Program-made: the position numbers and the translations under genes
Shown: positions 3,305 to 51,497 of the stretch, one piece after another
How positions within the stretch are numbered: the first letter of the stretch is position 1
Layout of the letters: each line of letters begins with the position of its first letter
The notes under the pieces: generated by a model
The model's database searches: none
Seen by the model: the letters and a program-made list of their open reading frames with translations, nothing else
What the model was told of the DNA's origin: nothing
NCBI GenBank assembly: GCA_963699835.1
Contig: CAVOVJ010000008.1
Coordinates: 73,417 to 137,416 of the forward strand
Direction: 5' to 3'
DNA length: 64,000 nucleotides
Origin: an uncultured Gammaproteobacteria bacterium
Lineage (GTDB): Bacteria; Pseudomonadota; Gammaproteobacteria; Steroidobacterales; BM003

Positions 3305-3414
3305 GCCGAAAATGACAACGTTTTTCCTGGTTACACGGTCAGATGGCATCATTTACCGTCGATCACGAGTGCTCGCCTCGCGAACCCTGTCGGACACAGT
3401 CAGCCGACACCTGG

Positions 3415-13914: not shown

Positions 13915-14088
13915 GCGGGGCGGCCCGGATTTCGTGCGGCGGCGGCTGCCGTACCGCAACGCGCGCACCCCCCTTCACTGTGCGGTTTCGTCATGAGCGT
14001 CCTCCGGCGCATGACAGTCGTTGTTATTATTCTTTAGCTCCCGAATCCGGCTGATGACGACCGGACCTGTGGAGATACCCGTTTAGGA

Positions 14089-14104
14089 AGCAAGACTCAT
14101 GCCA
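14089..14104 (-). promoter_or_regulatory. Candidate sigma-54 (-24/-12) promoter upstream of the TonB-dependent receptor
   Basis: The minus strand reads TGGCATGAGTCTTGCT, with GG and GC at the canonical spacing (consensus TGGCACG-N4-TTGCW). It lies about 175 nt upstream of the ATG at 13914, with an AT-rich tract directly upstream. Confidence 0.6.
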
Positions 14105-14159: not shown

Positions 14160-15007
14160 TTATTTGAACTTTATTCTAGGCATTTCAACTGGCGTGTGCA
14201 GTTCACTGCCAGCGATCGTGTTTTTCGTACAAAATCTGTGCCGCATCATTCCGTTGGCTGACCCGCCCCGCGCTCTGCTCGAATCGGGATCAGCGCTTTC
14301 CGTGACACCTGGCAGCGCCGCAACGATGAGTGTCATCCGCGTACCGACTGGCGGCAGGATTTCGCTATTACCGAGTATCGATCCATACGCGCCGATACCG
14401 AGACCAAGCTGGTGCTCGATAATCGTCATCGGATCGTGCACCAGACCAATCAACGAGCCTGAAGAGTCAGCCAGGTAGGTCGGCGGGTCGGACGGGTACA
14501 TCGCCGAACCCGGTGTAGATCCAGCGCGTCTCGCGCGGCGGCCCGTCCGGCGCACCGACGATTCGCAGCGCATCTGCGGCATCGATTTCGACACTCCCCT
14601 GCGTCGCCCTCCCAGCGCAGCCTTGATTGCAACCTCAGGACCCTCGACCATCGTTTCGTCGAACTGGAATTCGGGGATGGACCACGCCGGTGTCATCGAG
14701 ACCGATGAGAATACAGGCGAGATTGAAATGCAGGCCTCGGGTCCTGAGTTCGAGCAGGCTTTCGTAGTCCTTTACCCCACGCCGGGCGACCGCGAGGTAC
14801 TCGAGCGGATCTTCGGTGTGGATCAGCTTTGCCTCAACGCTGAAGCTGCGTGCCGCTTTATCGACGACGATCCTGCCGACCTGGTAACGACCGCCGCCGA
14901 GGTCCTTGATCGGAACTTCCGACTCCGCCACCTGCGCCTGCGCGCTTGCGAAGGAAACTGATACCTACCAGCAACCAACCCAAAACTCCGACGCGCGCCG
15001 AGCTCAT
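14160..15007 (-). pseudogene. Secreted hypothetical protein (possibly YdjY-domain-like); frame broken about 4 times
   Basis: The ATG at 15007 overlaps the methyltransferase stop (ATGA). A signal-peptide-like start (MSSARVGVLGWLLVG..SFASAQA/QV) is split over two frames. Protein-like segments occur in three frames: LEYLAVARRGVKDYESLLELRTRGLHFNLACILIGLDD; EFQFDETMVEGPEVAIKA; VEIDAADALRIVGAPDGPPRETRWIYTGFGD; ADSSGSLIGLVHDPMTII. The family assignment is from memory only. Confidence 0.45.
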
Positions 15008-16020
15008 GGCTTCACCCCGAACACGATCCGGTGCGGCATGGGCGGCGGAAAATTGAACATCTCGACATCCACCAGTCCGCGGTCACGCATCCAAGCGGCG
15101 ACATCAGCGTCCGCATGAACCGTACCGTCCGGCGCGGTCAGGAGCATCGTCAATCCGAACAAGGCAGCGAACGCGGGGCTGGCGCCCCCGGCATCGGCAA
15201 AGACATCGCAAATGACCATGCGGCCACCGGATTCCAGCGCATCGAAACCCTTGGCGATCAGGTCGCGACATTGCTGCTCGGTTTCGCGGTGAAACATGCC
15301 GGACATCAGCACGGCCTCGACCGGCGCCGGAAACGCTGACTTCTTGTAGTCGCCCTCAACCATATTGACCCGGTCACCGGCTGGCATTGTCGCAAGAATC
15401 TCGCGGGCGAATGGAATGACGCCGGGCAATTCCAGCACCTCGGCTTTGAGGTCCGGATAGCGCGCCGCGAAAAGCGCGGAGTAAGTACCGGGACCGCCAC
15501 CCACATCCAGAAGGCTGCGACACTCGTCGAGGTCGACCAGGCTTACCAGCGCCTGCCCGATACCCAACGCGCGGTTGTGCATGCCATAGACAAAATTTCG
15601 GGTGCGCCTTTCGTCATCGCCGAGATAACTCGAAGCCGTCAACGCGGGCTCACCCGCACGCACGGAGTGTTCCAGCCGCCCCCAGGTCGCATAGAGGTCG
15701 TCGCAGTAGCGAATGGCATCGCCCATGTAGGACTGTGTTCCGGGCAGCAGATAGGCCGCCCCGAGATCGCTGCAACGGTACAAACCGTCTTGCTTTTCCA
15801 GCAGATCCAGCGAGGCGCAGGCATTCAGTAACAATTCGGTTGAGCGTCCGGCGATGCCCAGTTTCTCCGCAATCTCGTTCGCGCTGACCGCAGCATCGCC
15901 AATGGCCTCGAAAAGCCCGATTCGATTGGCGGCAAACAGCGTCTGCGACGCCCAGTAGGCCGTGGTCAGTTCGACAATCGGCGTGGGATCGGGAACCGCA
16001 GCGGCGTCGGATGTGCTCAT
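15004..16020 (-). CDS. Class I SAM-dependent O-methyltransferase (dimerisation domain plus Methyltransf_2 type)
   Basis: Intact 338-aa ORF. It has an N-terminal winged-helix dimerisation region and the SAM motif LLDVGGGPGTYS. Its ATG overlaps the stop of the radical SAM gene (ATGA at 16020). Confidence 0.8.
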   Translation of the reverse strand: MSTSDAAAVPDPTPIVELTTAYWASQTLFAANRIGLFEAIGDAAVSANEIAEKLGIAGRSTELLLNACASLDLLEKQDGLYRCSDLGAAYLLPGTQSYMGDAIRYCDDLYATWGRLEHSVRAGEPALTASSYLGDDERRTRNFVYGMHNRALGIGQALVSLVDLDECRSLLDVGGGPGTYSALFAARYPDLKAEVLELPGVIPFAREILATMPAGDRVNMVEGDYKKSAFPAPVEAVLMSGMFHRETEQQCRDLIAKGFDALESGGRMVICDVFADAGGASPAFAALFGLTMLLTAPDGTVHADADVAAWMRDRGLVDVEMFNFPPPMPHRIVFGVKP

Positions 16021-17281
16021 CAGGCAGCATCCTCATGATGGCGATCGATGTCGCACTCCAGTTGCATGTAGGCGCAACGGTGGCACATAAATGCGTCTGA
16101 GATAGCCAATCCGTGGTTTTCGCGAATACCGGCATAGGCAATGTTGAGGCGCTCGAAGAAATTTCGCAGCCGGCTCATGTAGTCGGGATGATTCTTGCCG
16201 CCGACCGGCCAGTAAAGCGAGTAGATCGGGATGATCCCGCGGCTGCACAGATCCTCGGCACCGGCAATACACAAATCCGCCGCCGGCAGCCATTCCATCT
16301 CGTGCTCGGGTTCGAGCTCGATGCCCGCGACCATCGCCGAGTAGACCCGGCCGCGGCCCCACAGGGAAACGGCAGTCTCGAGCGAGGCAATCCACTTGTC
16401 ATAGCCGACATAGCGATTCTTGCCGGGGCAGATTTTTGCGAATAGCGGCTCCGACCAGACTTCGAGATTGAAGCAGACGTTGTCGACCAGCGCGTCGTCG
16501 TAAAACTGCTGCAAAAGATCGTCAGGCAGCGCGCCGGAACCCAGCGTAACCGGCACGTTTTCGTGGTTAATTTCTTTGACCGCGCGCGCCAGTTGGAGGA
16601 ACCGCTCGCCCTCCTCGCGCCAGTCGGTCAACGATCCGCCAACGAGGTAGATATGCCTGATGGAGGTTTCGCCAAGCGCGGCCGTCACCGTCTCCTGCAT
16701 CCGGCTTGAGGGTGAGCGCGGGAATAGCCAACTGCCCCGCCACCTGGCCGAGGTGTGCGGTGCGCTCGTCGGGTGCCCCGTATGAGCAAAAGCGGCAGCG
16801 CATCGATTCGCCATCGTGCTTGTGCAGAAAATATTCGCAGCCGGGAGCGACATTGATCACCATCATATCGCTGTGCAGACTGACCCCGGCCTGGGCCATC
16901 GGGAACCCGTCGCTGGTCTCGCCCCGCATCCATTCCGGCATTGGCTCGAAGCGAATTTCGATATCGTCACCGGCGGTCGCATTACGCAGACGATAACCGG
17001 CATCGCGATCGCCCTCGACAACCCAGTCCGATTCACCATTGCCCTTTCACCCGAATCATCGTGCCGTCCGGAGTTCGAATCAGGTACGGTATCGCCACCT
17101 GCGGCTTACCCGTGGGATTGGGTTCGTCCGGCTTGAACCTGTAAGGATAGTAATTGGGCAACGCATGCTCCACTGCCTTGCCCAGCGATTCGCTGTAGCG
17201 AATGCCTTCAAACATCACATCGACTTTGAGTCGTGTCGAAGCATCGAGTCTTTCCATGATCACCGCCCCGGTCTGCTGCAA
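16020..17281 (-). pseudogene. Radical SAM-like enzyme with an unusual cysteine spacing; two frame breaks (~17035, ~16715)
   Basis: Segments in ORFs 17033..17281, 16567..16941 and 16020..16853 join into one protein of about 420 aa. The cysteine motif is APGCEYFLHKHDGESMRCRFCSYG (16786..16839). Downstream TIM-barrel-like segments follow (IRHIYLVGGS, NLEVWSEPLF). Confidence 0.6.
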
Positions 17282-17375
17282 ACGATCTTTTTATTTTATC
17301 CCGGACATATCTCAAACACTGGTGTTATAGTCGTTTCGGCCGTGAACAACAAAAAAAGAAACTCAGGCTAAGCCA

Positions 17376-18017
17376 ATGTCCGGCCCGTTGCGCACTACAG
17401 TTGTGATTATAGTCGCGCTGCTGGTGCCTATCGTGCCATATGTCATAATCGGCGAACTACCCGGCGAGCAATGGTTGTCCAATGCGGACGACGACGCTTT
17501 CGCGTTTGGCGCTACCGGCGCCGCTCTGCTCGTCGCCGATGTCCTGCTCCCTATTCCGTCGAGTATTGTCGGCACATTGCTGGCCGGTCGTCTCGGTTTT
17601 ATCAGCGGATTTCTCTGGACCTGGAGCGGGCTCTGTATCGGACACATCATTGGCTATGGCGTGGGCCGAGCGTTACTCTCTGGTGCACGCGCCCATCTTC
17701 CCGAGACACCGACACTTCTGGCGGTCCTGGTCTCGCGCTCGCTGCCGATCCTGGCTGAGGCGCTGACCCTCACCGCCGGTGCCACGCGAATGTCCTTTGC
17801 CGGTTTTACCGGCGCCTGTCTGATCGGAAATTTTGTCTATGCTTTTCTGCTTGCCGCCAACGGCGCGGCGTTGATTCCGGACGGACTGCTCGGCCCGGTT
17901 CTCGTGATTCCAGGCCTGTTGCCGGCGGCAGGTCTGTGGTTGTGGTGGCGCCATCGGACGCGACTCGCAACAACCCGCGGCAACGGCCGGAGTCAGCAAT
18001 CCGAAGAACCCGGGTAG
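17376..18017 (+). CDS. DedA / TVP38-TMEM64 (VTT domain) family membrane protein
   Basis: 213-aa polytopic ORF. The pattern LLPIPSSIVGTLLAGRLGFISGFLWTWSGLCIGHIIGYGVGR is typical of VTT/SNARE-associated proteins. Divergent from the radical SAM operon. Confidence 0.7.
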   Translation: MSGPLRTTVVIIVALLVPIVPYVIIGELPGEQWLSNADDDAFAFGATGAALLVADVLLPIPSSIVGTLLAGRLGFISGFLWTWSGLCIGHIIGYGVGRALLSGARAHLPETPTLLAVLVSRSLPILAEALTLTAGATRMSFAGFTGACLIGNFVYAFLLAANGAALIPDGLLGPVLVIPGLLPAAGLWLWWRHRTRLATTRGNGRSQQSEEPG

Positions 18018-18891: not shown

Positions 18892-18928
18892 AACAAAATA
18901 AGCGGCGCGGCATTCCCTGCCGCACCGC
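18892..18928 (-). terminator. Rho-independent-type terminator after the PEP-CTERM gene
   Basis: The minus strand has an 11-bp GC-rich stem with one mismatch (18902..18912 pairing with 18918..18928) and a 5-nt loop, followed by TTATTTTGTT. Confidence 0.55.
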
Positions 18929-19019
18929 CTGCCCTGTCTATCCGCACGAGTCAAAAACTACCCCGAATATCGCTGCGATCCCTGGTAGCCTGCGTCGGGA
19001 TCAGCACCGCACCGACGGA

Positions 19020-19655
19020 CTAACCGCGCGCGCGAAGCATCGGCTTTCTTCGGGCCAGACCCAGCGCAAGGAAACCCAGACTCAACAACAGCACGGTACC
19101 GGGCTCCGGCATCGGCATATCTTGCGGAGAACAGACATAGTCGAGATCCCGCGGACTCTGCGTATCGTTACATTTCACGTCATTGATACCGCCCCAGTTG
19201 AACGCGAACGAGGCTGATTCCGCATCGGCATTGGCAGTAAAGAGCAGCGACGCGAGAATGAAATCGCCACCGCCCTGCAACCCCGACAACGTCGCCAGGT
19301 CGAGTATCGAGAACAGGTTGGGATCCGCAAACCCGGGGCCGTCCACGTTACCCGGGTCGTAAAAGGCCTCGCAGCCGGCGCTTGCATCCGTATTCTCGCA
19401 AGCCATCCCAAGACCATCGCCGTAGTCAATCGCGTCCAGCGTCAATAACGTATCGTCATACGCGATGGCCATATCGTAAGCGGTGATGACTTCGGTTCCC
19501 AGATCCGACGCCACAATATCGACTCTGATAACGTCGCCAGAGGTAATCGGCCCGGCATCAGTCGGATCCAGCGATATATTCACCGCCAGCGCGTTGCCAC
19601 CCCACATCGACGCTGCCAGCAGCAGGGCCGTGCTCAGTAAACTCGTGCGTTTCAT
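19020..19655 (-). CDS. PEP-CTERM sorting-signal protein with cohesin-like domain
   Basis: Signal peptide MKRTSLLSTALLLAASMWGGNALA. A cohesin-like pattern follows (VNISLDPTDAGPITSGDVIRVDIVASDLGTEVITAYDMAIAYDDTLLTL). The C-terminus PEPGTVLLLSLGFLALGLARRK gives the PEP motif, a TM helix and a basic tail. Confidence 0.8.
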   Translation of the reverse strand: MKRTSLLSTALLLAASMWGGNALAVNISLDPTDAGPITSGDVIRVDIVASDLGTEVITAYDMAIAYDDTLLTLDAIDYGDGLGMACENTDASAGCEAFYDPGNVDGPGFADPNLFSILDLATLSGLQGGGDFILASLLFTANADAESASFAFNWGGINDVKCNDTQSPRDLDYVCSPQDMPMPEPGTVLLLSLGFLALGLARRKPMLRARG

Positions 19656-19762: not shown

Positions 19763-21462
19763 TCACCCACCGCCCTTCTGGAATACTTGCTGCACGTCAT
19801 CTTCCGCGCAGTTCTTGCGCGTGCACTGCTGTGCACACCAGCGAGCGTCGTTGACGGTGATGGTTCCGTCGCCATCGAAGTCGGCGGCCGGATCGGCAGG
19901 CGGCACACTCTGGCCGCGCAACACACTGATCAGGCGGAGATCGGCCCGGTCGATGTCTTCGTCACCGTCCATATCGCAGCGCAGGAATCCATCCGAGCAG
20001 GCGTCACCGACGCCATCGCCGTTGGAATCTTCCTGGTCTGGATTAAACACGTCCGGGCAGTTGTCGCAAACGTCGCCGACTCCATCCTCGTCACGATCGG
20101 ACTGATCCGGGTTCGGCTCGGTCGGACAGTTGTCGTCGGCATCGCAGATACCGTCACCGTCGGAATCGACACAGCCGCCACCGGTGGAGCGGGATAGCAC
20201 GAGAATTGCATAGGCCTGCGACGCATACTGGTCCCAGCGTCCGGGCGCGCCATTAGCGTCGTACTGGCCGTCGCCCGCCTGGTAGCCGAGCAGTGAGTAG
20301 GCGTAATCGAAGTAGATTCGCGGCTGCTCGTTCGGGTCGTCGTAGTAGCCGGGACCCTGGGCACCGAACAGCGGAACTCGCGGCACGGTGGTCGGATCGC
20401 GATGAACCTCGCGTACGTTGCAGGCCGGTGCTGCGGCAGGATCCAGCGTGCCGATATCCTCAACGCTGGTGTTACCCGGGTTGGGATCAATACCGGACCC
20501 TTCAATAAACTCATAGGCCTTGGAGGAAGACCACAGGTAATAATAATAACTCTGTGCACTGAAGTCGTTGCCGGCAATATTGGTGTACCGATACCGGTTC
20601 TTCGCCCATGTCAGGTATTCCTGCACGCCAGCGGAATTGACGTTTGAGCCACCCACCAGCTGAATCCAGGTACCGGATGCGGTTTGCTGATGCGTCGCAT
20701 CATTTCCACGATTGTAGCCGTGACCCGCGTCGTCAGCGGCGATGCCGCTGCAGACGTCCGACGTGGTGACCGCGTTGGCGATGTACGCGGCCTCGGCGCG
20801 ATCCGCCAGCGCATTGAGCTGGGCAAGTCTCGCGGCATCCGAATAGGACGCATCCGAGTAAACGGAGCGTATTGAGGCCAGACCGGCCATCACCAGTTGC
20901 GTCGTCGAAGAATCCGGACAATGACGGGTTGAAATAGCACCAGTAACCGTCGTCCAGCGCCGCCAGTCTGATTCTGGTTGGCTGCGATCCGATCGAATAT
21001 CGCGTTGATCGTGCCAATCAAATCTGACGGCAATCCGCCGGGCAGATCGGGATGCTCGCCGCGATCGGGACCACCGGACAGCAGATAAACCGACAACGCC
21101 ATCGCATCGCCGCCGTCGCGGTAGGCATAGAAACTGGCCCCAAAAGCGCGGTTGATGATGTAGGCGGCGGAACGGCGCATGCGCGCTTGGTCCGCCGCGC
21201 TTGCATTCTCATAGCCCTGCGCAGCGGAATCCTGATCGGCGCTTGCGCGCTTTTCGAGCAGCGCAAGTAAAGTCAGGCCAGCGGCGTTGCCGGCGGAAGA
21301 CGGATTATTAAACGCACCGACGGTGTCCAGCCATCCCAGGCCCAGATCGATCGATGCGTTGACGTCGTTACTGAAATTTGTCACCTGCGCCTGTGCGCTA
21401 CCCACGCCCAGCGCAAGAAGTAGAGGGAGTATAAGCCGTCCCGGTCCCCACTTTTTATTCAT
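19763..21462 (-). pseudogene. Secreted alpha/alpha-toroid (prenyltransferase/squalene-oxidase-repeat-like) protein with C-terminal thrombospondin type-3 repeats and a dockerin-like module; two frame breaks (~20900-21000)
   Basis: Signal peptide MNKKWGPGRLILPLLLALGVGSAQA. TSP3 repeats [57 protein letters not shown] lie at 19997..20173. Two EF-hand dockerin-like segments, [19 protein letters not shown] and [15 protein letters not shown], lie at 19823..19978. Confidence 0.7.
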
Positions 21463-21609: not shown

Positions 21610-21625
21610 TGCAAAGCACATGCCA
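21610..21625 (-). promoter_or_regulatory. Candidate sigma-54 promoter for the dockerin-protein / PEP-CTERM transcription unit
   Basis: The minus strand reads TGGCATGTGCTTTGCA (canonical GG/GC spacing), about 150 nt upstream of the ATG at 21462. An AT-rich, possibly bent region lies upstream. Confidence 0.65.
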
Positions 21626-21899
21626 AGCCCAGCGAATTCTTTTTAAGGTATTGTTTTCGTTGTCTTTTAATGACAAATTTCAAACACTCGGCGAGTACTG
21701 ACTCTTCGTAAGGCAGTCTGACAATAACACCTTTTTTTGTTTAAAAGCAATATGTTATAACCTCTCGACAAAACACCTGTACAATTTCCCCCCACACGGG
21801 TTGCCGGTTCGTCTATAAATTACCCACCCCGCAGCCATTGTGGCTTTGCAACAACGATTAAAAAACATTGACTTGTCGGCAGGTTGACAATTCAGGCTA

Positions 21900-23378
21900 A
21901 TGCGCCGGTATGCTCGGGAATCGAAGTCTGCAGCGCCACAAAGACGGAAAAAGAGTGTCGGAATTATTTACACAGATGAGTTTCGGGCGGTGACTATCGG
22001 AGCCGCAACACTGCGTGAACGCATCTCGCGTCCGTTCATGCTGCTGCTCGTTGTCGCTATGACATCGGCGTGGCTGGCGGCAGTGACAATCCTGCGCAGC
22101 ACAGTGATCGACACCCTCGATCGCCGCCTCGAGTATTCGGTATCCGTACTGGCCAGTGGCACATTGCCGCTTACGCCCGAACTGCTAAATCGGGCCGGAC
22201 TGGTAACGGGTCTGGATTTCGCCCTGATCGACAAAGATGAGCACATGATAGCCAGTACGATCGCACTGGATTCGGCGGACACGTTGACCCGCAGTCCGGA
22301 GGTCCTCGAACTGATCCGGTCGAAACCGAACCTGCCGTACTCAGCCAGCACGATAGACGGGCGGCGTGTCGCCGCCAAGCAGGTTGCCGGCAGAGCAATG
22401 CCCGATGGCGTCACTCTTGTGGCGATTGCATCGCTGGACGATATACGACACTCAGTTGGCAAGGCCGCTGCATGGTTTGCGTTGACCCTGCTCGGCGCCG
22501 GGCTGATGCTGTACCTTCTCGGGCGCAGAGTCAGCCGCGCCATTTCGCGACCGATCAGTGAACTCGGCACTTTTGCCGAGCGCATCTCGTCGGGCGAGCG
22601 GAATATCGACAATCGCCTGGATGGACCGAAGGAATTGCAAAAGCTCGGTGAAATCATGGCGAGTATGGCGCAGCGAATCGATGATACCGAGGCCGAAATG
22701 ATGCGCCAGAATCGCTACAAGGCGCTCGGCGAGATGGCCGCGCGGATCGCGCATGAGATCAGAAATCCGCTCACTGCAATCAAGATGCAGTTGCAACTTA
22801 TGCAGGAATCGGCCGATGCCGCGGGTCGGGAAAAACTCCAGCGTGTGCTGAACGAAACGGCACGCCTTGAGATGATCACCGCAAATACGCTGTCACTCGG
22901 CGGGGATCTTGCGATACGGACGCAACCTGTCGAACTCGACAGTATCGCCGCCGAGGTCATCGAATTGCTGCGACCGCAGTTTCAGCACCAGCACATCACG
23001 CTCCGGTTCGAACCGGGTTGCGAAACTTCTCTACCACTCGATGCGGATCGTGTTAAACAGGCATTGCTGAATCTGCTGGTCAATGCTGCTGACGAACTGG
23101 TCAAAGGCGGCGAGGTCAGCGTGGCGACGCGTGGCGGGGACCACAATGCAGTGCTGATCGTTGAGGACGACGGCCCCGGAATTGCCGCCGACAAACGCAG
23201 TGCATTATTCGACAATCCAACCAGCGACAAGAAATTCGGTCTTGGGCTTGGCCTTGTCGTCGCCCGCCAGGTCGTCGAAGCGCATGGCGGACAACTCACC
23301 GTCATGGACAGCGAACGACTGGGAGGCGCAAAATTTCGCATGGAGTTTCCGCGTCCCGAGAAAGTTGTAACGGAGTAG
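21900..23378 (+). CDS. Sensor histidine kinase (2 TM, periplasmic domain, HAMP, HisKA, HATPase)
   Basis: H-box HEIRNPLTAIKMQLQL, N-box LLNLLVNAADE and G-boxes DDGPGI / GLGLGLVV. The true start may be downstream (for example GTG ~21990), because a TTGACA lies only 11 nt before 21900. Confidence 0.85.
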   Translation: MRRYARESKSAAPQRRKKSVGIIYTDEFRAVTIGAATLRERISRPFMLLLVVAMTSAWLAAVTILRSTVIDTLDRRLEYSVSVLASGTLPLTPELLNRAGLVTGLDFALIDKDEHMIASTIALDSADTLTRSPEVLELIRSKPNLPYSASTIDGRRVAAKQVAGRAMPDGVTLVAIASLDDIRHSVGKAAAWFALTLLGAGLMLYLLGRRVSRAISRPISELGTFAERISSGERNIDNRLDGPKELQKLGEIMASMAQRIDDTEAEMMRQNRYKALGEMAARIAHEIRNPLTAIKMQLQLMQESADAAGREKLQRVLNETARLEMITANTLSLGGDLAIRTQPVELDSIAAEVIELLRPQFQHQHITLRFEPGCETSLPLDADRVKQALLNLLVNAADELVKGGEVSVATRGGDHNAVLIVEDDGPGIAADKRSALFDNPTSDKKFGLGLGLVVARQVVEAHGGQLTVMDSERLGGAKFRMEFPRPEKVVTE

Positions 23379-23384
23379 ACAGGC

Positions 23385-24823
23385 ATGGCAAAAGTTCTTG
23401 TTGCCGACGACGAACAATCGATCTGCGATGCGTTCAGCGCGTTTCTGACCCATGAGGGGCACACGGCGCTGACCGCATCGACCGGACCCGAGGCGATATC
23501 GCTGGTAACCGATGAACGTCCCGACGCGATGTTTCTCGATGTGCGCATGCCGGGCAATGAAAATCTCGAAGCATTGCGCGAAATCAAGTCGCTCAACCCG
23601 GAACTGCCGGTCATAGTAATGACGGCGCATGGAACGCTCGATACCGCGCTCGAGGCGATGCGATTGCAGGCATTCGACTATATCGGCAAGCCGGTCGAAC
23701 TGGCGCAGGCTCGAGAACTGCTATCCCGTGCGCTGCATTACAGCCTGCTCGAAACCCGCAACCGACGATATCGCCGCACTGCCCGCTGGCGACGGCCTGC
23801 CGCGACTGGTCGGCCAGAGCCCCGCGATGCAGGAGGTCTACAAAATGATGGGGCTGCTCACCGCAAACGATTTGTCTGTGCTGATTACCGGTGAGAGCGG
23901 CGTCGGCAAGGAACTCGTCGCGCACGGCATCCACGACAACAGCGCGCGCGCCGACCAGCCGTTTGTCGCGGTGAACTGCGCGGCTATTCCGGAGGGGCTG
24001 ATCGAAAGCGAGTTATTCGGTCACGAGAAAGGCGCTTTCACCAGCGCCCACGAGAAACGCGTCGGCCGGTTCGAGGCGGCGGGCCAGGGCACGCTGTTCC
24101 TCGATGAAGTATCGGAGTTACCGGTGCACTTGCAGAGCAAGCTGCTGCGGGTGTTGCAGGAACGCAGTTTCGAGAGAGTCGGCAGCGGCGAATCGCGCCC
24201 GTTCCGTGCGCGGCTGATCGCTGCGTGCAACAGCAACCTGGAGGAAGAGATGCGAGGCCGGCCGGTTCCGCGAGGATCTCTATCACCGGCTGAATCTTGC
24301 GACGCTGACAATTCCGCCGTTGCGCGAGAGGAAAACCGATGTTGCGATTCTCGCCGGGCACTTTTTGCGCGTTGCCAACGAGGAAGTCGGTAAACAGATA
24401 TCAGGGATAGACGACGCAGCGCTCAGACTGCTGGAGGCGTATCCGTGGCCGGGCAACGTACGCGAACTCGAGCACACGATAAAACGCGCCGCGCTGGTCG
24501 CACGCGGCAACGCGATTACGATCCATGACATCGATGGTGAGTTGCTGCGGCAGGATTCGGCTTCGACGGCCGGTTCCCGTGAGGAACTCAGGTCGCTGGT
24601 CAGCGCCTGGGCCGAGCGCGCATTCGCCTCCTCCATAGACGGGCCCGACGACCCAGACGGTCCGGACGACGAGAACCGATACCAGGACATTGTCCGGTGC
24701 GTCGAGGAAGAAATCGTTGCCGCTGCCTTGGCGAGGACCGGCGGCAACCAGGTGGCCGCGTCCCGCTTTCTCGGGCTGAACCGCACAACCCTTCGCAGCA
24801 AGATCCGCAAATCCGGCGACTGA
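23385..24823 (+). pseudogene. NtrC-family sigma-54-dependent response regulator (REC, AAA+, Fis-type HTH); two frame breaks (~23740, ~24255)
   Basis: REC domain in ORF 23385..23894 (VLVADDE...DVRMPG...). AAA+ domain in ORF 23629..24393 ([31 protein letters not shown]). C-terminus in ORF 24320..24823 (WPGNVRELEH, ...GGNQVAASRFLGLNRTTLRSKI). Confidence 0.85.
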
Positions 24824-24965
24824 GCAAATTCTGCACACGCGCGCGGCACAACTGCCGACAATCCATTCACAACCGAGCCGCAGCGCGGCAGTGGCTTTGT
24901 AGTGGGACCACGTAAGTGCTTGTTTCCGTAGCTGCAAAAGCCCTATCTAAACGATTTTCAGGAAC

Positions 24966-24981
24966 TGGCATGATCGTTGCT
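24966..24981 (+). promoter_or_regulatory. Candidate sigma-54 promoter heading the MoxR/vWA operon
   Basis: The plus strand reads TGGCATGATCGTTGCT (canonical spacing). It lies 143 nt after the regulator stop and about 235 nt before the first operon ATG (25215). Confidence 0.7.
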
Positions 24982-25214
24982 TAAAAGTATCTGGTGTGGA
25001 ATCCACAAGGATTTCGCGGCGCGCCCGGGTCCCCCACAATTACCCGGGCTCGCCAGCCAGCCCGATCACATCGCCCCAGTGGCCGGGCTGGCCGAAACAA
25101 TCGGCAGCGTGCTGTCGGGTGACAAACGAGCGGCAGGCGCGTCTGCAAAGATGCGTCTGCCGTATCGTACTGGTAGCCAATAACAATAACAGTCTCCTCA
25201 AGGGGGTCGGCAGA

Positions 25215-25925
25215 ATGGCACCGATCAGAGGGCATAAGGGCCGGGCAACCGGAGCGGCCCTGCTACAGGGAAATGTGTCCGGCACACTGCTGGGCGCAGC
25301 CACGGCTGTATTGGCGCTGACTGCCTTCGAAGTCCCGGCTGCCGCCGAGGGAATGCTGGTCGCGGCCATCGCACTGTTCAGCGGAATCTGGTTCTGCCCG
25401 GTTTTCATCGCTGGCGCGGTTACGCGGGTCACCGCGACCATTGCCTGGTCCGTCACTCTGCCACTTGCAATAGCCGCGGCAACAGCCGCCACCACCGCCA
25501 TCCCCTTGTCGCGAATTGCCTACCCGGGTGGGGCCGCGATCCTGATTCTGATCGCCGCATCACTTGCCATCGCGTGGGCGGATACGCGCGGTTGGCGCGA
25601 GGCACGAACCGGACTCGTGCTGTTATTCGCAATCAGCATTACAAGCTGTGTATGGCTCGGTCCCGCTGCCGAGCTGGCAGCGGCAAGACCCTGGATGGCG
25701 AGCCTGATCGTCAATCTCAACCCGGCCTCGTTTCTGGCGGTTGCGGCCGGGCACGACTACCTGCTCGATACCTGGCTCTACCAGCACACGGCTTTCGGCA
25801 GTCTGCGCTACCAATACTGGCCACTGAGTCTGTTCGTCGGCCTGAGCCTCGTGGTCGCGGCGACTTTCGCGGCATGCCTGCTTTTACCAGTCAACAAGAA
25901 CGCCGGATCCACGGCGACAACGTAA
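25215..25925 (+). CDS. Polytopic membrane protein, unknown function
   Basis: ATG at 25215 preceded by AAGGGGG. About 6 hydrophobic segments rich in Ala/Ile/Leu. No motif recognised. Confidence 0.5.
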   Translation: MAPIRGHKGRATGAALLQGNVSGTLLGAATAVLALTAFEVPAAAEGMLVAAIALFSGIWFCPVFIAGAVTRVTATIAWSVTLPLAIAAATAATTAIPLSRIAYPGGAAILILIAASLAIAWADTRGWREARTGLVLLFAISITSCVWLGPAAELAAARPWMASLIVNLNPASFLAVAAGHDYLLDTWLYQHTAFGSLRYQYWPLSLFVGLSLVVAATFAACLLLPVNKNAGSTATT

Positions 25926-25941
25926 TTTGAAGGAGCAATCT

Positions 25942-27018
25942 ATGAGACAGGGGATTTTCCAGGCCTGGTTAGCGATGACCCTACTTGTATGCGGCGGTGT
26001 AAATGCCGAGCCCGTGATGGATCCGGCGCTGCGCGAGAAAGCCGGCCGCGCGGCGGATGCCGGCCTGCATTATCTGCGCGAGCACCAGGCGGAAGACGGT
26101 TCATGGTCGGAGTCGGTCGGAGTCACTGCGCTCGCGCTACGGGCGTTTCTCGAGAGTCATCGCGGCTATAACGAAGGCGATGGCGCGTTTATCACTCGGC
26201 CGATCAGTTTCATCATGGCTAATGTCCGCGACGACGGATCGATAAGCGAGACAGCGCAGAAGAAAAACTACAACACCGCCGTGTCACTCACCGCACTGGC
26301 GGCAACCAACAACAGCGACTACGCAACGACGATCAGCAACGGACAGAAATTTCTCAAGGGCCTGCAGCTCGACGGGCCCGACGGCTACGAGCCCGATCAC
26401 AAGTACTACGGCGGCATTGGCTACGGCGGTGACGAACGCCCCGATCTTTCCAACCAGTACATGGCGCTGGAAGCGCTGAAAGCAACCGCCACGGATGAGA
26501 ACGACCCGGTCTGGGACAAGGCACTCACTTTTGTCAGCCGCGCGCAAAACTACAGTGAAACCAACGACCAGGAATGGGCCGGCAACGACGGCGGCTTCGT
26601 GTACATGCCGGGTTACAGCCCGCATGAAGGACTGAACTCCTATGGCGGCATGACGTCTGCCGGACTGCTGAGCCTGTTGTTCGCGGGCGCCGACAAATCG
26701 GACCCGCGGGTAAAAGCCGCCTACGACTGGATTCGCGCCAACTACACGCTCGAGGAAAATCCGGGTGCCGGGAACCAGGGTCTTTACTACTACTACAACG
26801 TGTTCGCCAAATGCATGTATGTCTATGGCGAAACCGAGATTGTCGACACCAACGGCGTCGCGCACAACTGGCGTAACGATCTCGCGCGGAAACTGATCAG
26901 CCTGCAACAGAAAGACGGCTCATGGTTCAACCCCGATTCACCCCGCTGGTGGGAGGGGAACAAGGACCTCGTCACCGCCTGGAGCGTGATCGCGCTGAAC
27001 TCCGTGTTGCGCGACTAG
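25942..27018 (+). CDS. Secreted prenyltransferase/squalene-oxidase-repeat (alpha/alpha toroid) protein
   Basis: AGGAG RBS then ATG at 25942. Signal peptide (MRQGIFQAWLAMTLLVCGGVNA). Repeats of the type HQAEDGSWSE...VTALALRAF, DGSISE, YGGIGY, QQKDGSWFN...VTAWSVIAL. Confidence 0.7.
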   Translation: MRQGIFQAWLAMTLLVCGGVNAEPVMDPALREKAGRAADAGLHYLREHQAEDGSWSESVGVTALALRAFLESHRGYNEGDGAFITRPISFIMANVRDDGSISETAQKKNYNTAVSLTALAATNNSDYATTISNGQKFLKGLQLDGPDGYEPDHKYYGGIGYGGDERPDLSNQYMALEALKATATDENDPVWDKALTFVSRAQNYSETNDQEWAGNDGGFVYMPGYSPHEGLNSYGGMTSAGLLSLLFAGADKSDPRVKAAYDWIRANYTLEENPGAGNQGLYYYYNVFAKCMYVYGETEIVDTNGVAHNWRNDLARKLISLQQKDGSWFNPDSPRWWEGNKDLVTAWSVIALNSVLRD

Positions 27019-27028
27019 GGAGAACGGC

Positions 27029-28513
27029 TTGGCGCTGCAAAGGCATGCACTTGCAGGTATCACCGCAACGGCGTTTCTCGCGCTGGCCGGCAACGATGCT
27101 GCGGCTGCCGTCTCAACCCATGCGGCGTGGGGCGGCAATGTTCATCCGGGACGGCCAACCGGGGTATTTGTCGAGGTGCAGCCAACATCGGGCGGGGATG
27201 CGCAGATCACGGTTACCAGTGGCGGACAGCGCTACACCAGCCTTGCCCGCCTCGAACCCGGAACCCTGCATCGCCAGTGGCTGACAGTCGTTCCTTCCGC
27301 CGGGCGCTCGCTCGAGGTGCTGGTACAAACCCCCGGCGCTGCCGACCACCACGAACAATTGTCGCTGCGGGTGGCGCGCCAGCCGATCGTCGCCTATGTC
27401 TCAATGGGAGAACTGCGCCTCCCGCAAGACGCAAAACACACAGTGGTTGCAGTGGACCCTGCCTTGCTTCCAGACAGTACCGATGCATTTGCCACGCTTG
27501 ATGCGCTGGTCCTTGCACGCTCCGGCTTCGAACGTCTGTCCGAGGCGCAAATCGCGACATTGCTCGCCTTTCTCGGCACATGCGGCCGTCTGCTCGCTGT
27601 CGATATGCCAGATGCGACGTTTCGCCTGCTGCGGGCACAGGCCGGATGCGGCGGTCTCTTCGTCGCGTCCGCCAACCTGCCCGGAACGCATGCAGCCGTA
27701 AACCGGTTGCTCGCGGCCGAGCACGATACGCTGCCGTCCGCCGCGCGACTGGCAGCGATGCAGCCGGAAGCCCAACGTATGCAGCTATGGTGGCGCGTCA
27801 CGATCTTCGTGCTCGGCTATGTGATCGTCATGGCGCTGCTTGCCGCTTCGGGTCGCGCCCGCCCCGTACTGGCAGCGACACCGTTGCTGGCGGCGGTCAT
27901 CGCGTTGCTGGTGTGGACGGCGGATGCTCGCGAGGAGTTGCTGGTATGGTCGGAAACCTACCAGGGTACCCAGTTTGCCCGCTACAGGGGGCTGATCCGC
28001 GTCACCGGCACCGGTCGCGGGATGCGCCGGCTGATCGCGCCACCGGGCGGCGGCCAGCCGCGCCCGGTCAGCGACCGCGTCGTTGCCACGTTCACCGCGA
28101 CGGCGGGACAGGCCAATCAGCACAGCATCGAGATTCCCGTCTCGCTGATGTCGCGGTCACTGTTCCTGCTGGAGGGCACATTTCCTGTCAATCCCGCCCT
28201 CGCGCTCGCTGGACCGGAGCATTCTCCCGCCGTCGTTCATCGCGGCGGTCAGCCGACACCACAGGGGTTGTTGAGCCTGGACGGTGACATTTTCCCGGTG
28301 CCGGCAATGCAACCGGGACAGACCGTGCATATCGACACGGATTCGCCGTTACCCCGCGATCACAGGATCGGAAGCCTGTTGCGCCTGCGCGCCGGCTCGC
28401 GCGGCTCGCTGTTGTTGCCACTCGAACGGATCGATCGGCTCGCTGCGGAACGCGCGAGCAGCATGGGCTGGTTAATGGTCACTCCGCGAACAGCGCAGGA
28501 CGAGGCGGGATGA
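27029..28513 (+). CDS. Hypothetical exported/membrane protein (possible GATase1-like DUF1355-type fold, central TM pair)
   Basis: TTG start after GGGAGA. Signal-like N-terminus. The segment VVAVDPALLPDSTDAFATLDALVLARSGFERLSEAQIATLLAFLGTCGRLLAV is followed by two TM helices. Fold assignment is tentative. Confidence 0.5.
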   Translation: MALQRHALAGITATAFLALAGNDAAAAVSTHAAWGGNVHPGRPTGVFVEVQPTSGGDAQITVTSGGQRYTSLARLEPGTLHRQWLTVVPSAGRSLEVLVQTPGAADHHEQLSLRVARQPIVAYVSMGELRLPQDAKHTVVAVDPALLPDSTDAFATLDALVLARSGFERLSEAQIATLLAFLGTCGRLLAVDMPDATFRLLRAQAGCGGLFVASANLPGTHAAVNRLLAAEHDTLPSAARLAAMQPEAQRMQLWWRVTIFVLGYVIVMALLAASGRARPVLAATPLLAAVIALLVWTADAREELLVWSETYQGTQFARYRGLIRVTGTGRGMRRLIAPPGGGQPRPVSDRVVATFTATAGQANQHSIEIPVSLMSRSLFLLEGTFPVNPALALAGPEHSPAVVHRGGQPTPQGLLSLDGDIFPVPAMQPGQTVHIDTDSPLPRDHRIGSLLRLRAGSRGSLLLPLERIDRLAAERASSMGWLMVTPRTAQDEAG

Positions 28514-28988
28514 TTCTCCGCTATCCGAACAATGCCACCCTGGTCTGGAGTCTGGCTGCGCTTCTCCCTGTTGCTGCGTGGTTCCTGTTGACTGCGCGCC
28601 TCGCAATTCTTCGCGGTGTGGACCTCAGCGCCAGCGCCGACATCGCGTTTGCCGTGCTGGCAACGGCACAGGCGTTCGTCATTCCGCTGTTTGCAGCCGG
28701 ACACCGACCCGTAATGCGGCCGATTTCGCGGTTGCCGCCGCCTGCCCGATCTATACCGGGCTGCCGTTCGCCGCGCTGTTCTGGCTCGCCGGCACGCTCG
28801 ATGCAACGGTTGCGATTGCGACCCAGGCATTGCTTGCCAGTTTCGCGGTGGGCTGCATGCTGCTGACCAGGTCAATACAGGCAGTACTGCCGGCGCGTGT
28901 GGCCGGGCCAATGATCCGGATCGTACTTGGCCTGACAGCGGCGGCGGCAGTCGTCTTCAGCCGCGACTGGCTCGGTTGGATATCCTGA
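28510..28988 (+). pseudogene. Small polytopic membrane protein; one frame break (~28700)
   Basis: ATGA overlap with the preceding gene. Hydrophobic segments continue from ORF 28510..28866 into ORF 28578..28988. Confidence 0.4.
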
Positions 28989-29911
28989 TGGCCAACCGCG
29001 CCACCGAGTTCTCCGATCTCGTTCGCGCGTATCGCCGCCGGGCCCTGAGGCAGTCGCTGGCACGCGCGCTGCTAAGCGCATTCAAACTGGGCGCCGTCGT
29101 TCTGGTCACCGCGGCCTGCCTGCGCCTGGTCTGGCCTGCGATTCCGCCGATGTTGCCTGCCGTAGCCGGACTGCTGGCGTTTGCCGCCGTATTCCTGACC
29201 GGCCTGTACACGGAGTTGCTTCAACGCATCGCACCGATTGTTGCAGACACTGCACTGCACGCGGGTTCGTTGCTTGTCAGCGCGTTGGAACTGGAAGCCC
29301 AGCCGCGGCGACACGACCGTCGCGCTACAGTATTCACGATGCAGCGGGCACGCGCCGAACTACCCGCATGGCGTGCGGCAATTCGCGAAGTACTACGCCT
29401 GCCGTCGCCGCGCGCATTTCTACTGCCGCTCGCATTGCTCGTCGCCGGCCTCGCATTGCTGGCGTTACGTCCCGCGACGACAGCCCATGGTCCGCCCGAT
29501 TCGCGGGCAGAAAAATCGGACGCCACGGCAATTACATCGCGAAGGATCGCCGAGTTGCGCAGCTCACTGCAACCTGCAGGCTCCGGACAGCATGCAGCAG
29601 CGACGACACAAGACGCTCCGGGTCCGCCCGTTGCACGTAGCGATCGGGTCCGAAGCGCGCGCGACTCAGCTGCAACAGTTGACGAGATTACTGGGCAACG
29701 CGCCGTATCCGCCCCCACCATCGGTGACAGAGCAAATACGCGTGCGGTATCAGGACAAGGATCACGCGCCGGGTATGCCGCGGCAACGGACGACAGCGTC
29801 AGTTCTCGCGCTGACGATCTCGAGCTCGAGGTCACCGCGGTAGACATTGAGCGCAGTGGCAATGCAGGCGTCAGCATGAACGCGACTGCTGGCGCGTGGT
29901 TTTGCGGATAA
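28988..29911 (+). CDS. Hypothetical membrane protein with low-complexity C-terminal half
   Basis: TGATG overlap with the preceding gene (MANRATEFSDLVRAYRRRAL...). Three to four TM helices, then an Ala/Ser/Arg-rich tail. Confidence 0.45.
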   Translation: MANRATEFSDLVRAYRRRALRQSLARALLSAFKLGAVVLVTAACLRLVWPAIPPMLPAVAGLLAFAAVFLTGLYTELLQRIAPIVADTALHAGSLLVSALELEAQPRRHDRRATVFTMQRARAELPAWRAAIREVLRLPSPRAFLLPLALLVAGLALLALRPATTAHGPPDSRAEKSDATAITSRRIAELRSSLQPAGSGQHAAATTQDAPGPPVARSDRVRSARDSAATVDEITGQRAVSAPTIGDRANTRAVSGQGSRAGYAAATDDSVSSRADDLELEVTAVDIERSGNAGVSMNATAGAWFCG

Positions 29912-30053
29912 TCGCGCACGCGCAACTGAGGGCGCCGGTATGACGATGCCACCGGCCCTGCTTGCCACCGGCGCCCATGATTACGAACTGACGCCGGCCG
30001 AGCGCGGCTACTTCGAACGCTACCGCCGCCAGCGGGAGACAAGCCAATGAACG

Positions 30054-31047
30054 ATGCCAGCCAGGGTGAGTGCTTCGCCGCAAGCGGTCCGCGACCAGCT
30101 ACTGCAACTGCAGACTGCGTTGGAGGGTGTGCTGCTGGGGCAACAGCAACTGGTGCGCCAACTGCTGACAGCGCATTGTGGCCGGTGGCCACGTCTTGCT
30201 CGAGGGCCTGCCCGGTCTCGGCAAAACCAATCTCGCAAAAGGCCTTGCGAACGCGTTGGGTGTTTCACTCGGGCGGGTGCAATGTACACCGGATCTGATG
30301 CCGTCGGACATCACCGGCAGCGAAGTATTGCAGCGTGCCGCTGACGGACAAATGCAGATGGTCTTCCTGCGTGGGCCGATTTTCGCGTCGTTGGTCCTCG
30401 TTGACGAAATCAATCGTGCAACGCCGCGCACGCAAGCCGCTTTGCTGGAAGCGATGCAGGAAAGCCAGGTCACAGCCGGGGGCCACAAACACGTGCTGCC
30501 GCAACCGTTCTGGGTGCTGGCTACGCAGAACCCGATAGAGCTCGAAGGTACCTATCCACTACCAGAAGCGCAGCTCGACCGGTTCCTGTTCAAGTGTCAT
30601 GTCCCCTACCCCGACGCCGACGCCATGGCATCCATTCTCGATCAGGCCCTCGATAGCGAACCTTCGGACCGGCTGGGCAGGATCGTCACTGAATCGCAAT
30701 TGTCCGGACTGCATGACTGGGGAACGCGAGTCATCGTCGCGGAACCGGTAAAACGAGCGGCTGTCGAGCTTGTTCTTGCGACCCAGCCAGCGCGCGGCAA
30801 AGACACGATTGCCGCCCGTCATTTGCGTTACGGCGCGAGTCCGCGCGGCCTGCAGGCGATAGTCAAAGCCGCACGGATCAACGCGTTGTTTGACGGCCGT
30901 GCCCACGTTGCCATCGAGGATCTTCGCAGTGTCGCATTGCCGGCGCTGCGCCATCGCGTGTTGCTCAAAGTAGAGAGCGAGCTCGAGGGAGTCGATGCGG
31001 ATACGGTGCTGCAGGAGATAGTCCGGACATGGCTGAACGCGCATTGA
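30054..31047 (+). pseudogene. MoxR-family AAA+ ATPase; one frame break (~30175)
   Basis: The N-terminus in ORF 30054..30344 (LQLQTALEGVLLGQQQLVRQLLTAH) joins ORF 30178..31047 (GGHVLLEGLPGLGKT, LVDEINRATPRTQAALLEAMQE, ATQNPIELEGTYPLPEAQLDRF). Confidence 0.9.
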
Positions 31048-31934
31048 ACGATCCGCTGGCGGCTGTCGATCAGACCGAACTCAAACGCCTCGCGGGTGTA
31101 GCGGGAAAACTCCTGGCGGGACGCAGCTCGACAATGGGCGGCGGCCGCCCGCACCGGCGCCAGGCCGGGCGCGGACTCGAGTTTTTCGACCATCGCCCTT
31201 ACATTGCCGGCGACGAAGTCCGCCATGTTGACTGGCGCCAGAGCGCGCGACGCGAGACGCCGATGGTCCGGCGCTTTGTCCATGAGGCATCGACCGACTG
31301 GCTGGTGTGTCTCGACTGCAGCGCGTCGATGCAAAGCGCAGCTCGACGCAAGTGGGCACTCGGACTGCAGATCGCCGCCGCGGTCAGCTACCTGTTGCTG
31401 TACCTGGGTGATCGTGTCGCACTCGCCGGCTTCAGTGAAGATCTGGATGCCATCTGCAAATCCGGCCGCGGTGCGGCCCACTACACGCGTTTGCTGATGG
31501 TGCTGCGAGAACTGGTGCAACGCAGCGGCGGCAAGGCTTCGCAGCCCGGCGCGTGCGCGGGTCTGGCGCGTCGCGGCGATGCCGCAATCCTCATCACCGA
31601 CGGTCTCCGCGCAGACGGCATGAAACCCGATATTGCCTTGCTCGCGGCACAGTGCGCGCATGTTCGGGTGCTACAACTCGAGGACGTCCGCGATTTCAGC
31701 CTGCCGGGCGCGCCCGACCTGCGTCTCGTCGATGTCGAGAGCGGCATGGCACGCAGCGTCGCCAACTCCGATGCACTCATGCGAGCCGCGCGCACGGTAC
31801 GGGACAACATCGCGCAAAGCCTGCGCAACAACTGCCTGACACACGCCATTCCATACACTCGCGTCGATGCCGATTCACACTGGCGCGACGCATTGCTGAG
31901 CCACCTGGTTCCGGTGGCGTCGCGGCGTGATTGA
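31029..31934 (+). CDS. DUF58 (vWA-like) protein, MoxR partner
   Basis: GRGLEFFDHRPYIAGDEVRHVDWRQSAR is the DUF58 signature. 19-nt overlap with the moxR-like gene. Confidence 0.85.
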   Translation: MAERALNDPLAAVDQTELKRLAGVAGKLLAGRSSTMGGGRPHRRQAGRGLEFFDHRPYIAGDEVRHVDWRQSARRETPMVRRFVHEASTDWLVCLDCSASMQSAARRKWALGLQIAAAVSYLLLYLGDRVALAGFSEDLDAICKSGRGAAHYTRLLMVLRELVQRSGGKASQPGACAGLARRGDAAILITDGLRADGMKPDIALLAAQCAHVRVLQLEDVRDFSLPGAPDLRLVDVESGMARSVANSDALMRAARTVRDNIAQSLRNNCLTHAIPYTRVDADSHWRDALLSHLVPVASRRD

Positions 31935-51409: not shown

Positions 51410-51497
51410 TGAACTCTTTATCGAACAAGCGCCATTCCAACACGTGCCGGCCGCCATGCTACCGATAGGCACTCAGGAGCGGAGTAACTCCTCGACG

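Follow-up and report, generated by a model that had tools for sequence, protein, structure and literature searches.

Whether one enhancer-binding protein governs the genes on both sides of a two-component system is the question raised by a stretch of 64,000 nucleotides (nt) from an uncultured Gammaproteobacteria bacterium (contig CAVOVJ010000008.1), which is called the window hereafter. In the original prediction, a sensor kinase and an NtrC-type regulator were bracketed by two near-identical sigma-54 promoters, one facing a surface cohesin/dockerin unit and the other a MoxR/von Willebrand factor type A (vWA) operon, and one regulator was proposed for both units. The pair and the promoters considered in this work were as follows.

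21990 to 23378, plus strand: sensor histidine kinase, with two transmembrane segments, a periplasmic domain, HAMP, HisKA and HATPase (Pfam).
23385 to 24823, plus strand: NtrC-type sigma-54 activator, with REC, AAA+ with GAFTSA, lid and HTH_8 (PF00072, PF00158, PF25601 and PF02954).
21610 to 21625, minus strand: P1, sigma-54 (-24/-12) promoter TGGCATGTGCTTTGCA, predicted start ~21599, predicted to drive the dockerin-like toroid and cohesin/PEP-CTERM genes.
24966 to 24981, plus strand: P2, sigma-54 promoter TGGCATGATCGTTGCT, predicted start ~24992, predicted to drive a leader and the operon through MoxR/DUF58/vWA.
14089 to 14104, minus strand: P3, sigma-54 promoter TGGCATGAGTCTTGCT, predicted start ~14078, predicted to drive a TonB-dependent receptor.

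With moderate confidence, the locus was interpreted as a conserved multi-operon envelope module in which three sigma-54 promoters are served by two different activators and the regulator gene is intact. The motifs and their conservation, the two classes of upstream site, the gene order, the absence of two extra bases of the regulator gene from other sequences, and the limits of the RNA contigs were all read directly from tool results.

A scan for relatives of the kinase over one genome per species gave two related loci, namely L001 (an uncultured gammaproteobacterial metagenome-assembled genome (MAG), kinase 85% identical) and L002 (a Chromatiales MAG, kinase 69% identical). L004 and L006 (kinase 96-97% identical) as well as L005 and L007 (68-69%) came from a scan of metagenomes. 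The kinase family (~460 amino acids (aa), 33-39% identical over the full length) occurs in Gammaproteobacteria, including a tubeworm endosymbiont, and ten distant loci of this family (L012-L021) showed the conserved module.

The motif TGGCA-N6-TTGCW was matched three times in the 64-kb window, where 0.31 matches were expected, and at least three matches occurred in 2 of 100 shuffles. P1, P2 and P3 each fitted the extended consensus YTGGCAYG-N4-TTGCW with GG and GC 10 nt apart. All of them were located in non-coding DNA, which makes up 9% of the window (chance probability ~7e-4), and each was oriented toward a gene start 110-235 nt downstream (21462 for P1, the ATG at 25215 for P2, and 13968, the start of the TonB-dependent receptor, for P3). 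When the stricter pattern TGGCAY-N5-TTGCW was applied to ~151 kb of the window and its close relatives, 15 of the 15 matches were orthologous promoters and none was in coding DNA, where matches of equal quality had been named in the original prediction as evidence against it. P1 was kept in L001, L002 and L004-L007, P3 was kept in L001 and L007, and an equivalent of P2 (a GG-N10-GC promoter) followed the regulator gene in L012-L015, L017 and L019-L021. The -24/-12 motifs held their orthologous positions in L001, L002 and L004-L007 while the surrounding DNA diverged. On this comparative evidence, P1, P2 and P3 are regarded as genuine conserved sigma-54 promoters. The two 16-nt sites first proposed (P1 and P2; the plus-strand letters of P1 at 21610-21625 are TGCAAAGCACATGCCA) were present as canonical -24/-12 promoters on the strands claimed, and the third, P3, had been overlooked. 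Their supposed near-identity held in part. Both fit the general sigma-54 consensus, and their likeness is that match and nothing more; the TGGCATG that they have in common is not fixed, because the orthologous promoters read TGGCACG.

RNA was judged from assembled contigs of salt-marsh and sediment metatranscriptomes, which give no exact 5' ends. At P1, P2 and P3 the contigs stopped 14-38 nt downstream of the predicted starts, and none crossed a promoter. For P1, contigs ended at 21562 in three runs (predicted start 21599), and on L007 a contig extended to +14 to +18 of the predicted start; for P3 on L007, a contig extended to ~+22. A 177-nt contig for P2 covered ~25007/25009-25183, which is leader only, and began at ~+16. 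The P1 unit was well covered in six salt-marsh/sediment metatranscriptomes, with contig depths of 14-26 in three of them. Where RNA of the P1 unit was abundant, the depth of the P2 operon was at most 3.5, and the P3 unit and the kinase/regulator genes had no coverage (~0).

The upstream regions of these promoters carried two classes of candidate control site, which are listed below.

24821 to 24837, no strand assigned: class-1 dyad at P2, TGAGCAAATTCTGCACA, overlapping the TGA stop of the regulator gene, centre at ~-163, candidate site of the local regulator.
14226 to 14242, no strand assigned: class-1 dyad at P3, GGCACAGATTTTGTACG on the minus strand, centre at ~-156.
21707 to 21723, minus strand: promoter-proximal class-2 box TGTCAGACTGCCTTACG, 81 nt upstream of P1, with 2 mismatches, kept in L001 and L002.
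21956 to 21972, plus strand: distal class-2 box TGTCGGAATTATTTACA, an exact match, ending 17 nt before the kinase start codon.
21778 to 21794, no strand assigned: conserved TGTACA half-site (21778-21783) with an A/T-rich spacer, centre at ~-187, ~150 nt upstream of P1.

The class-1 dyad is a 17-bp element with the consensus TGTACA-N5-TGTACA, which was derived from the distant loci. It was located directly after the stop codon of the regulator gene in every pair-carrying locus that could be checked, down to ~35% kinase identity, with the exception of L013, whose gap has a single TGTACA core only; L018 ends inside the regulator gene. In loci with a MoxR-type cluster, the dyad preceded the GG-N10-GC promoter by 97-129 nt. 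Perfect dyads were found in L012 (TGTACAGTTCATGTACA) and L015 (TGTACAGAACATGTACA), and the other loci had 1-2 mismatches. Across 174 kb of related loci, 11 of the 13 matches with at most two mismatches were in these regulatory gaps. The predicted link from the regulator to P2, and with it to the MoxR/vWA operon, has strong comparative support. The same composite of dyad and promoter followed the YdjY operon in L014, L019 and L020, and P3 is therefore a conserved member of the promoter set. In L014, a class-1 dyad with TGGCATCATCGTTGCA (3228-3367, minus strand) faced a TonB receptor gene called on the plus strand from its 3' side; the promoter is antisense, or gene calling has missed a gene or called one wrongly at this point. 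A literature search on TGTACA enhancers gave nothing specific.

Three other shared elements were tried and rejected. The earlier motif RWWWHTGYACR, a post hoc pattern, occurred before all 15 promoter copies and had 5 matches in the window against 3.4 expected; it was replaced by the dyad. CTGCCGACAA, common to P1 and P2 in a shared-k-mer search of the three upstream regions, was at chance level and was not kept in L001 or L002. GTGGCTTTG, common to the two intergenic regions, was dropped, as it was not conserved in L002.

The class-2 box is a 17-bp element, TGTCRG-N5-YTTACA, which in the window and its relatives occurred on the P1 side only, with none at P2 or P3. Box and promoter were 81 nt apart in the window, and their distance in the relatives was 64-79 nt. 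The PEP-CTERM box is a 17-nt motif that ends in TTTACA, is sometimes repeated, and is located upstream of a sigma-54 motif at PEP-CTERM genes; the spacer to that motif is 62.8 +/- 10.6 nt (range 32-92), and the box has been tied to PrsR/PrsK/PrsT by phylogenetic profile (Haft et al. 2006, PMC1569441). For the PEP-CTERM gene pepA in Aquincola, RpoN dependence has been shown experimentally (PMC9850573). The box at P1 resembles this PrsK-PrsR-PrsT system in that it has 17 bp ending in TTTACA or CTTACG, is repeated, and stands 81 nt before the -24/-12 motif. P1 likewise lies within a large intergenic region, and a PEP-CTERM protein is encoded in the unit downstream of it. It differs from that system in that the PEP-CTERM gene is the second of its unit, with the dockerin-like toroid gene first, and in that the adjoining activator is not PrsR. 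In Accumulibacter, the same class-2 box was found 75 nt before the sigma-54 promoter of the orthologous toroid/thrombospondin type-3 (TSP3) gene and before the sigma-54 motif of a paralogue of this gene, and no kinase/activator pair of the present family was found within 9 kb on either side of the Accumulibacter locus.

The half-site at 21778 was the sole class-1-like element on the P1 side, and at the corresponding position L013 has a dyad with 2 mismatches. In one contig of the sediment run X4 that otherwise matched the window, 21633-21836 (202 nt) was replaced by 201 unrelated letters. Two elements of P1 lie in the replaced stretch, its proximal PEP-CTERM box and its TGTACA element, and the enhancer region of P1 therefore seems variable between populations.

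The Pfam domains confirmed a kinase and an NtrC-type regulator between the promoters, and by these domains the local activator is classed as a sigma-54 activator of the NtrC type. The kinase likely starts at GTG 21990, with the reading frame open from ATG 21900. Looked up as an exact sequence in a gene-position index, the kinase gave no entry, probably owing to the choice of start codon or to the absence of the source from the index. The activator orthologues were 52-60% identical overall with a conserved helix-turn-helix (HTH), which differs from the HTH of the second activator in the window. The sigma-54-contact loop was GAFTSA in the window clade and L012 and GAFTGA in the other orthologues; S at position 5 of GAFTGA has been listed as a putatively functional substitution (PMC3162934). 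By NCBIfam, the local activator fell short of the cut-offs for PrsR (374 against 502.6 bits) and AtoC (426 against 714 bits); the intact L001 orthologue did not reach the cut-off of the NtrC equivalog TIGR01818 (481.8 against 558.6 bits). A simple sigma-70 scan called no promoter for the kinase operon, and the conserved TTGACA(21884)-N19-TATGCT(21909) upstream of the kinase is only a suggestion of a sigma-70 promoter.

Which protein binds which site, which signal is sensed and what the products do biochemically are points that we infer, and the following scheme is proposed. The membrane kinase would respond to a signal from the periplasm or envelope by phosphorylating the activator encoded next to it at the REC domain. 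The activator would then bind the TGTACA-N5-TGTACA dyads at 24821-24837 and 14226-14242, contact the sigma-54 RNA polymerase of P2 and P3 by looping from ~-160, and open the promoters in an ATP-driven step. Activation of P2 and P3 would switch on the operon of gene A, toroid B, MoxR, DUF58 and vWA together with the TonB-dependent receptor. P1, as a PEP-CTERM-box promoter, would most likely depend on an activator of the PrsR type whose gene lies elsewhere in the genome, and it would express the secreted toroid protein with the dockerin-like tail together with the cohesin/PEP-CTERM protein that anchors it at the surface. Through the single half-site at 21778-21783, the local regulator may have some influence on P1. 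Since the upstream control sites of P1 and of P2/P3 differ, one regulator probably does not run both. The claim of one enhancer-binding protein for both units was supported by comparison at P2 and was not supported at P1, where the upstream element is of a different class.

Several points weigh against this scheme, and some of them favour the possible though rather doubtful alternative that the local activator alone drives P1 in addition to P2 (and P3), as one regulon with one signal. The kinase/regulator pair adjoins, and diverges from, the P1-type unit in five separate lineages (the window clade, L012, L013, L019 and L021), which fits direct control. A TGTACA element is retained on the P1 side in the window clade (the half-site ~150 nt upstream of P1) and in L013 (the 2-mismatch dyad). 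Both site classes share the frame TGT-N11-ACA with the right half TNTACA, so that one protein could read both. Furthermore, the P2 and P3 dyads of the window have 3 mismatches to the consensus, a level met by chance ~7 times per window, and what backs these predicted sites is position and conservation only. The assignment of sites to proteins likewise draws on co-occurrence. The class-2 boxes fit the PEP-CTERM box as compared with its published text description only. None of PrsR/PrsK/PrsT, exosortase and rpoN was found in the window, which covers 64 kb of the genome. Contig depth is a poor measure of expression. Nevertheless, the sites near P1 were of class 2 rather than class 1 in all lineages, and L012, L019 and L021 had no class-1 site on the P1 side. 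Five loci carried the pair and P2 and no P1 unit. The same box and promoter occurred in Accumulibacter without the pair, and P1 RNA was uncoupled from P2/P3 RNA, being abundant where the P2, P3 and regulator genes were near zero; these two observations speak against the proposed control of P1 by the local regulator.

It is quite improbable that a different activator drives P2 and P3, either the GlrR-like regulator at 51354-52832 or another elsewhere, and that the adjacent pair has other targets. A second sigma-54 activator does lie 26 kb away in the window, and sediment proteobacteria usually encode many sigma-54 activators (PMC3162934). Against this, in the related loci that were compared the class-1 dyad accompanied the local regulator gene at its 3' end, the HTH of the second activator differs, and the second activator is not in the conserved module.

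Very little probability was given to a true regulator pseudogene in this strain, which would leave the regulon locked off. As sequenced, the activator does span three frames, with two 1-nt insertions at ~23758-23760 and ~24253-24255, and to this extent the frame breaks of the original prediction stood. The orthologues in L001 and L002 were intact (475 and 477 aa), and compared with both the window had one extra base at ~23759 and one at ~24254. The extra bases were missing at both places from X1, X3, X4 and X5 contigs of independent sediment runs, and at 23758 from X27 as well; some of the run contigs without them were ~99% identical to the window. Compared with L001, the window had nine frame breaks in 17 kb over six unrelated genes whose fragments retained 94-98% protein identity, which is the signature of assembly indels and not of decay. 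Seven further indels in genes and spacers (18971, 19728, 20925, 20954, 24929, 28700 and 29897) were also absent from other runs. Overall, single-base indels occurred every ~1-2 kb in the window, broke at least six genes, and were absent from independent metagenome and metatranscriptome runs. The regulator frame breaks appear to be 1-nt insertion errors of assembly, with the gene intact in the organism, because they are absent from independent runs and because similar indels occur every 1-2 kb. The notion of a locked-off regulon is not upheld, since the insertions are specific to the window. The window assembly carries uncorrected indels, and apparent pseudogenes in it are therefore untrustworthy.

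That the -24/-12 matches are chance look-alikes without promoter function is the least credible reading, with next to no probability, given that the matches are enriched, intergenic, correctly oriented, conserved over three to ten lineages and supported by the RNA boundaries.

The genes assigned to P2 and P3 are given below.

24992 to 25214, plus strand: structured 5' leader of the P2 operon, ~220 nt, conserved, with a hairpin next to the ribosome-binding site that pairs with AAGGGGG.
25215 to 36008, plus strand: P2 operon, from gene A through the vWA protein.
25215 to 25925, plus strand: gene A.
25927 to 27018, plus strand: toroid paralogue B, with weak SQHop_cyclase matches.
27029 to 28513, plus strand: gene C.
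28578 to 30047, plus strand: gene D, frame-broken.
~30050 to 31047, plus strand: MoxR, frame-broken.
31029 to 31934, plus strand: DUF58.
31927 to 33510, plus strand: 527-aa protein.
Ending at 36008, plus strand: vWA protein.
11785 to 13968, minus strand: TonB-dependent receptor (Pfam Plug, TonB_dep_Rec_b-barrel), downstream of P3.

The gene order of the P2 operon was the same in L012-L015, L017 and L019-L021. The leader was more conserved than the neighbouring proteins, and long stems and a hairpin over the ribosome-binding site were predicted in it. The distant leaders (L012 11063-11371, L013 11046-11389, L015 11001-11149, L017 11048-11266, L019 11063-11221 and L021 11036-11332) shared hairpins with C/U-rich, anti-Shine-Dalgarno-like loops of the CUCCCCUCC type, often two in tandem. 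No Rfam match was found for the whole window at gathering thresholds or for the P2 leader at permissive thresholds. The leader may be a cis-regulatory leader or give rise to a small RNA. No link between MoxR/DUF58 operons and sigma-54 control came up in a literature search.

The P1 unit consists of the following features.

19763 to 21462, minus strand: first gene, secreted 565-aa protein with an N-terminal (alpha/alpha)6-toroid, TSP3 calcium-binding repeats and a dockerin-like C-terminus (about residues 495-560).
19020 to 19655, minus strand: second gene, 211-aa protein, cohesin-like domain (residues 35-150) with a PEP-CTERM anchor (MPEPGTVLLLSLGFLALGLARRK).
18900 to 18930, minus strand: terminator-like hairpin closing the unit, 13 pairs followed by a T-run.

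In the window, the frame of the first gene is interrupted by additional bases near 20925 and 20954, and RNA coverage falls at the hairpin. The dockerin-like tail matched the PDB dockerin 2y3n_B weakly (E 0.0099), and PF00404 is recorded for several members of the family. The cohesin-like domain scored 22.2 bits with Pfam Cohesin against a cut-off of 24.1 and matched PDB scaffoldin C weakly (E 0.004), and the PEP-CTERM anchor scored 21.0 bits against a Pfam cut-off of 20.7. Profile-profile comparison showed homology of the N-terminal 415 residues of the 565-aa protein to protein B of the operon (hhalign 96%, E 4e-9). The relation was visible in this comparison only, as the two toroid proteins did not align significantly with BLASTP (E 0.075). 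An AF2 model (pLDDT 84) was made of P0121, an intact homologue with 92% identity to the window fragment. It matched (alpha/alpha)6 toroids best, and its top Foldseek matches were GH76, squalene-hopene cyclase, the farnesyltransferase beta subunit and the thioester domain of alpha-2-macroglobulin (target-normalised TM 0.5-0.65; E ~1e-3). The claim that a toroid protein is encoded on each side is right because of this homology to protein B and the predicted toroid fold, and the two proteins are remote paralogues.

In L012-L021, the genes upstream of the kinase and activator encoded YdjY, an O-methyltransferase, a radical SAM protein and DedA/VTT, and the genes after the activator encoded an optional inositol-1-phosphate synthase, gene A, toroid-like B, proteins of ~495, 160 and 370 aa, MoxR and DUF58. 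The radical SAM, O-methyltransferase, YdjY-like and divergent DedA/VTT genes, often with DUF3303, travelled with the pair and the MoxR cluster in all distant loci (mapped at 14277-18017 in the window and in L012-L023); the YdjY-like gene of the window is frame-broken. Accumulibacter loci without the pair kept YdjY, DedA/VTT, DUF3303 and a protein of radical SAM size without a Pfam match. The dockerin/cohesin-PEP-CTERM unit and the MoxR-vWA cluster were conserved neighbours even in a betaproteobacterium, Accumulibacter, where toroid/PEP-CTERM genes were near MoxR-DUF58-BatA. The conserved neighbourhood supports a functional tie between the units and not their shared regulation, and of the proposal that the surface cohesin/dockerin pair and the MoxR-vWA machinery form one regulon, it is this tie that survives.

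The second sigma-54 two-component operon of the window (49378-52832) encodes a CHASE3 kinase, a 197-aa protein and the activator at 51354-52832, and it is located within an exopolysaccharide gene cluster (47-64 kb). The best NCBIfam match of this activator was GlrR (621 bits against a cut-off of 763), and it was below the PrsR cut-off (370 against 502.6 bits). The gene order of the operon matches glrK-yfhG-glrR of Escherichia coli. The DNA next to the operon showed neither a sigma-54 promoter nor a GlmY-like RNA, and nothing notable was found upstream of the second kinase. The GlrR-type pattern TGTC-N10-GACA was at chance level in the window. Other genes of the window encode a PAS/GAF diguanylate cyclase (6090-9260), BipA/TypA (9463-11391), a second TonB-dependent receptor (36713-38704) and two large PKD-repeat proteins (38987-41863 and 42574-44940).

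Compared with known systems, the pair resembles NtrB/NtrC, AtoS/AtoC and ZraS/ZraR, in which a membrane/HAMP kinase is paired with a REC-AAA+-Fis-HTH activator. The NtrC site is GCAC-N7-GTGC. The class-1 dyad, written as GTAC-N7-GTAC, has the same half-site spacing, and it stands ~-130 to -190 from a -24/-12 promoter, as with NtrC. The local activator differs from NtrC and AtoC in scoring below every NCBIfam equivalog cut-off and in having GAFTSA rather than GAFTGA in the window clade, and its predicted targets are envelope and surface genes, not those of nitrogen assimilation. The MoxR-DUF58-vWA ("Bat", aerotolerance-type) operons have the same order of MoxR AAA+ (AAA_3), DUF58 and vWA/BatA-like genes. 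Unlike them, the operon here has four to five extra conserved genes ahead, including that of a secreted toroid protein, and it has a sigma-54 promoter, a long structured leader and a dedicated kinase/activator pair. As in cellulosomes, a dockerin-like calcium-binding C-terminus occurs with a cohesin-like domain on an anchored neighbour protein. Unlike in cellulosomes, the host is Gram-negative, anchoring is by PEP-CTERM/exosortase and not by sortase or SLH, and the cargo is an alpha/alpha-toroid domain; moreover, all of the domain matches are weak, with scores at the cut-offs or slightly under them.

What appears to be new is modest, namely an undescribed NtrC-family pair with a definable predicted enhancer that would control a conserved, uncharacterised MoxR-vWA envelope operon beside a classical PEP-CTERM-box promoter. 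As a tentative and more speculative extension, the pair, its enhancer, the leader with C-rich loops, the A-B-C-D-MoxR-DUF58-vWA genes and the neighbouring radical SAM, O-methyltransferase, YdjY and DedA genes could form one undescribed envelope system, conserved in sediment and symbiotic Gammaproteobacteria, that matures or loads secreted toroid proteins. One paralogue would be displayed on the surface via a Gram-negative cohesin-dockerin pair anchored by PEP-CTERM/exosortase, and the PEP-CTERM and local regulators would be wired together through the boxes at the kinase start.

The apparent pseudogenes of the window are most likely assembly errors, which is relevant to any annotation of the source genome. 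For an uncharacterised module, the locus yields a testable regulatory map with three promoters, two enhancer classes and a named candidate site, and it extends the PEP-CTERM-box regulon to a unit whose first gene is not a PEP-CTERM gene. Transcripts of the dockerin/cohesin-PEP-CTERM unit are well represented in the metatranscriptomes of salt marsh and sediment, and the module spans abundant marine-sediment Gammaproteobacteria, a tubeworm endosymbiont and Accumulibacter.

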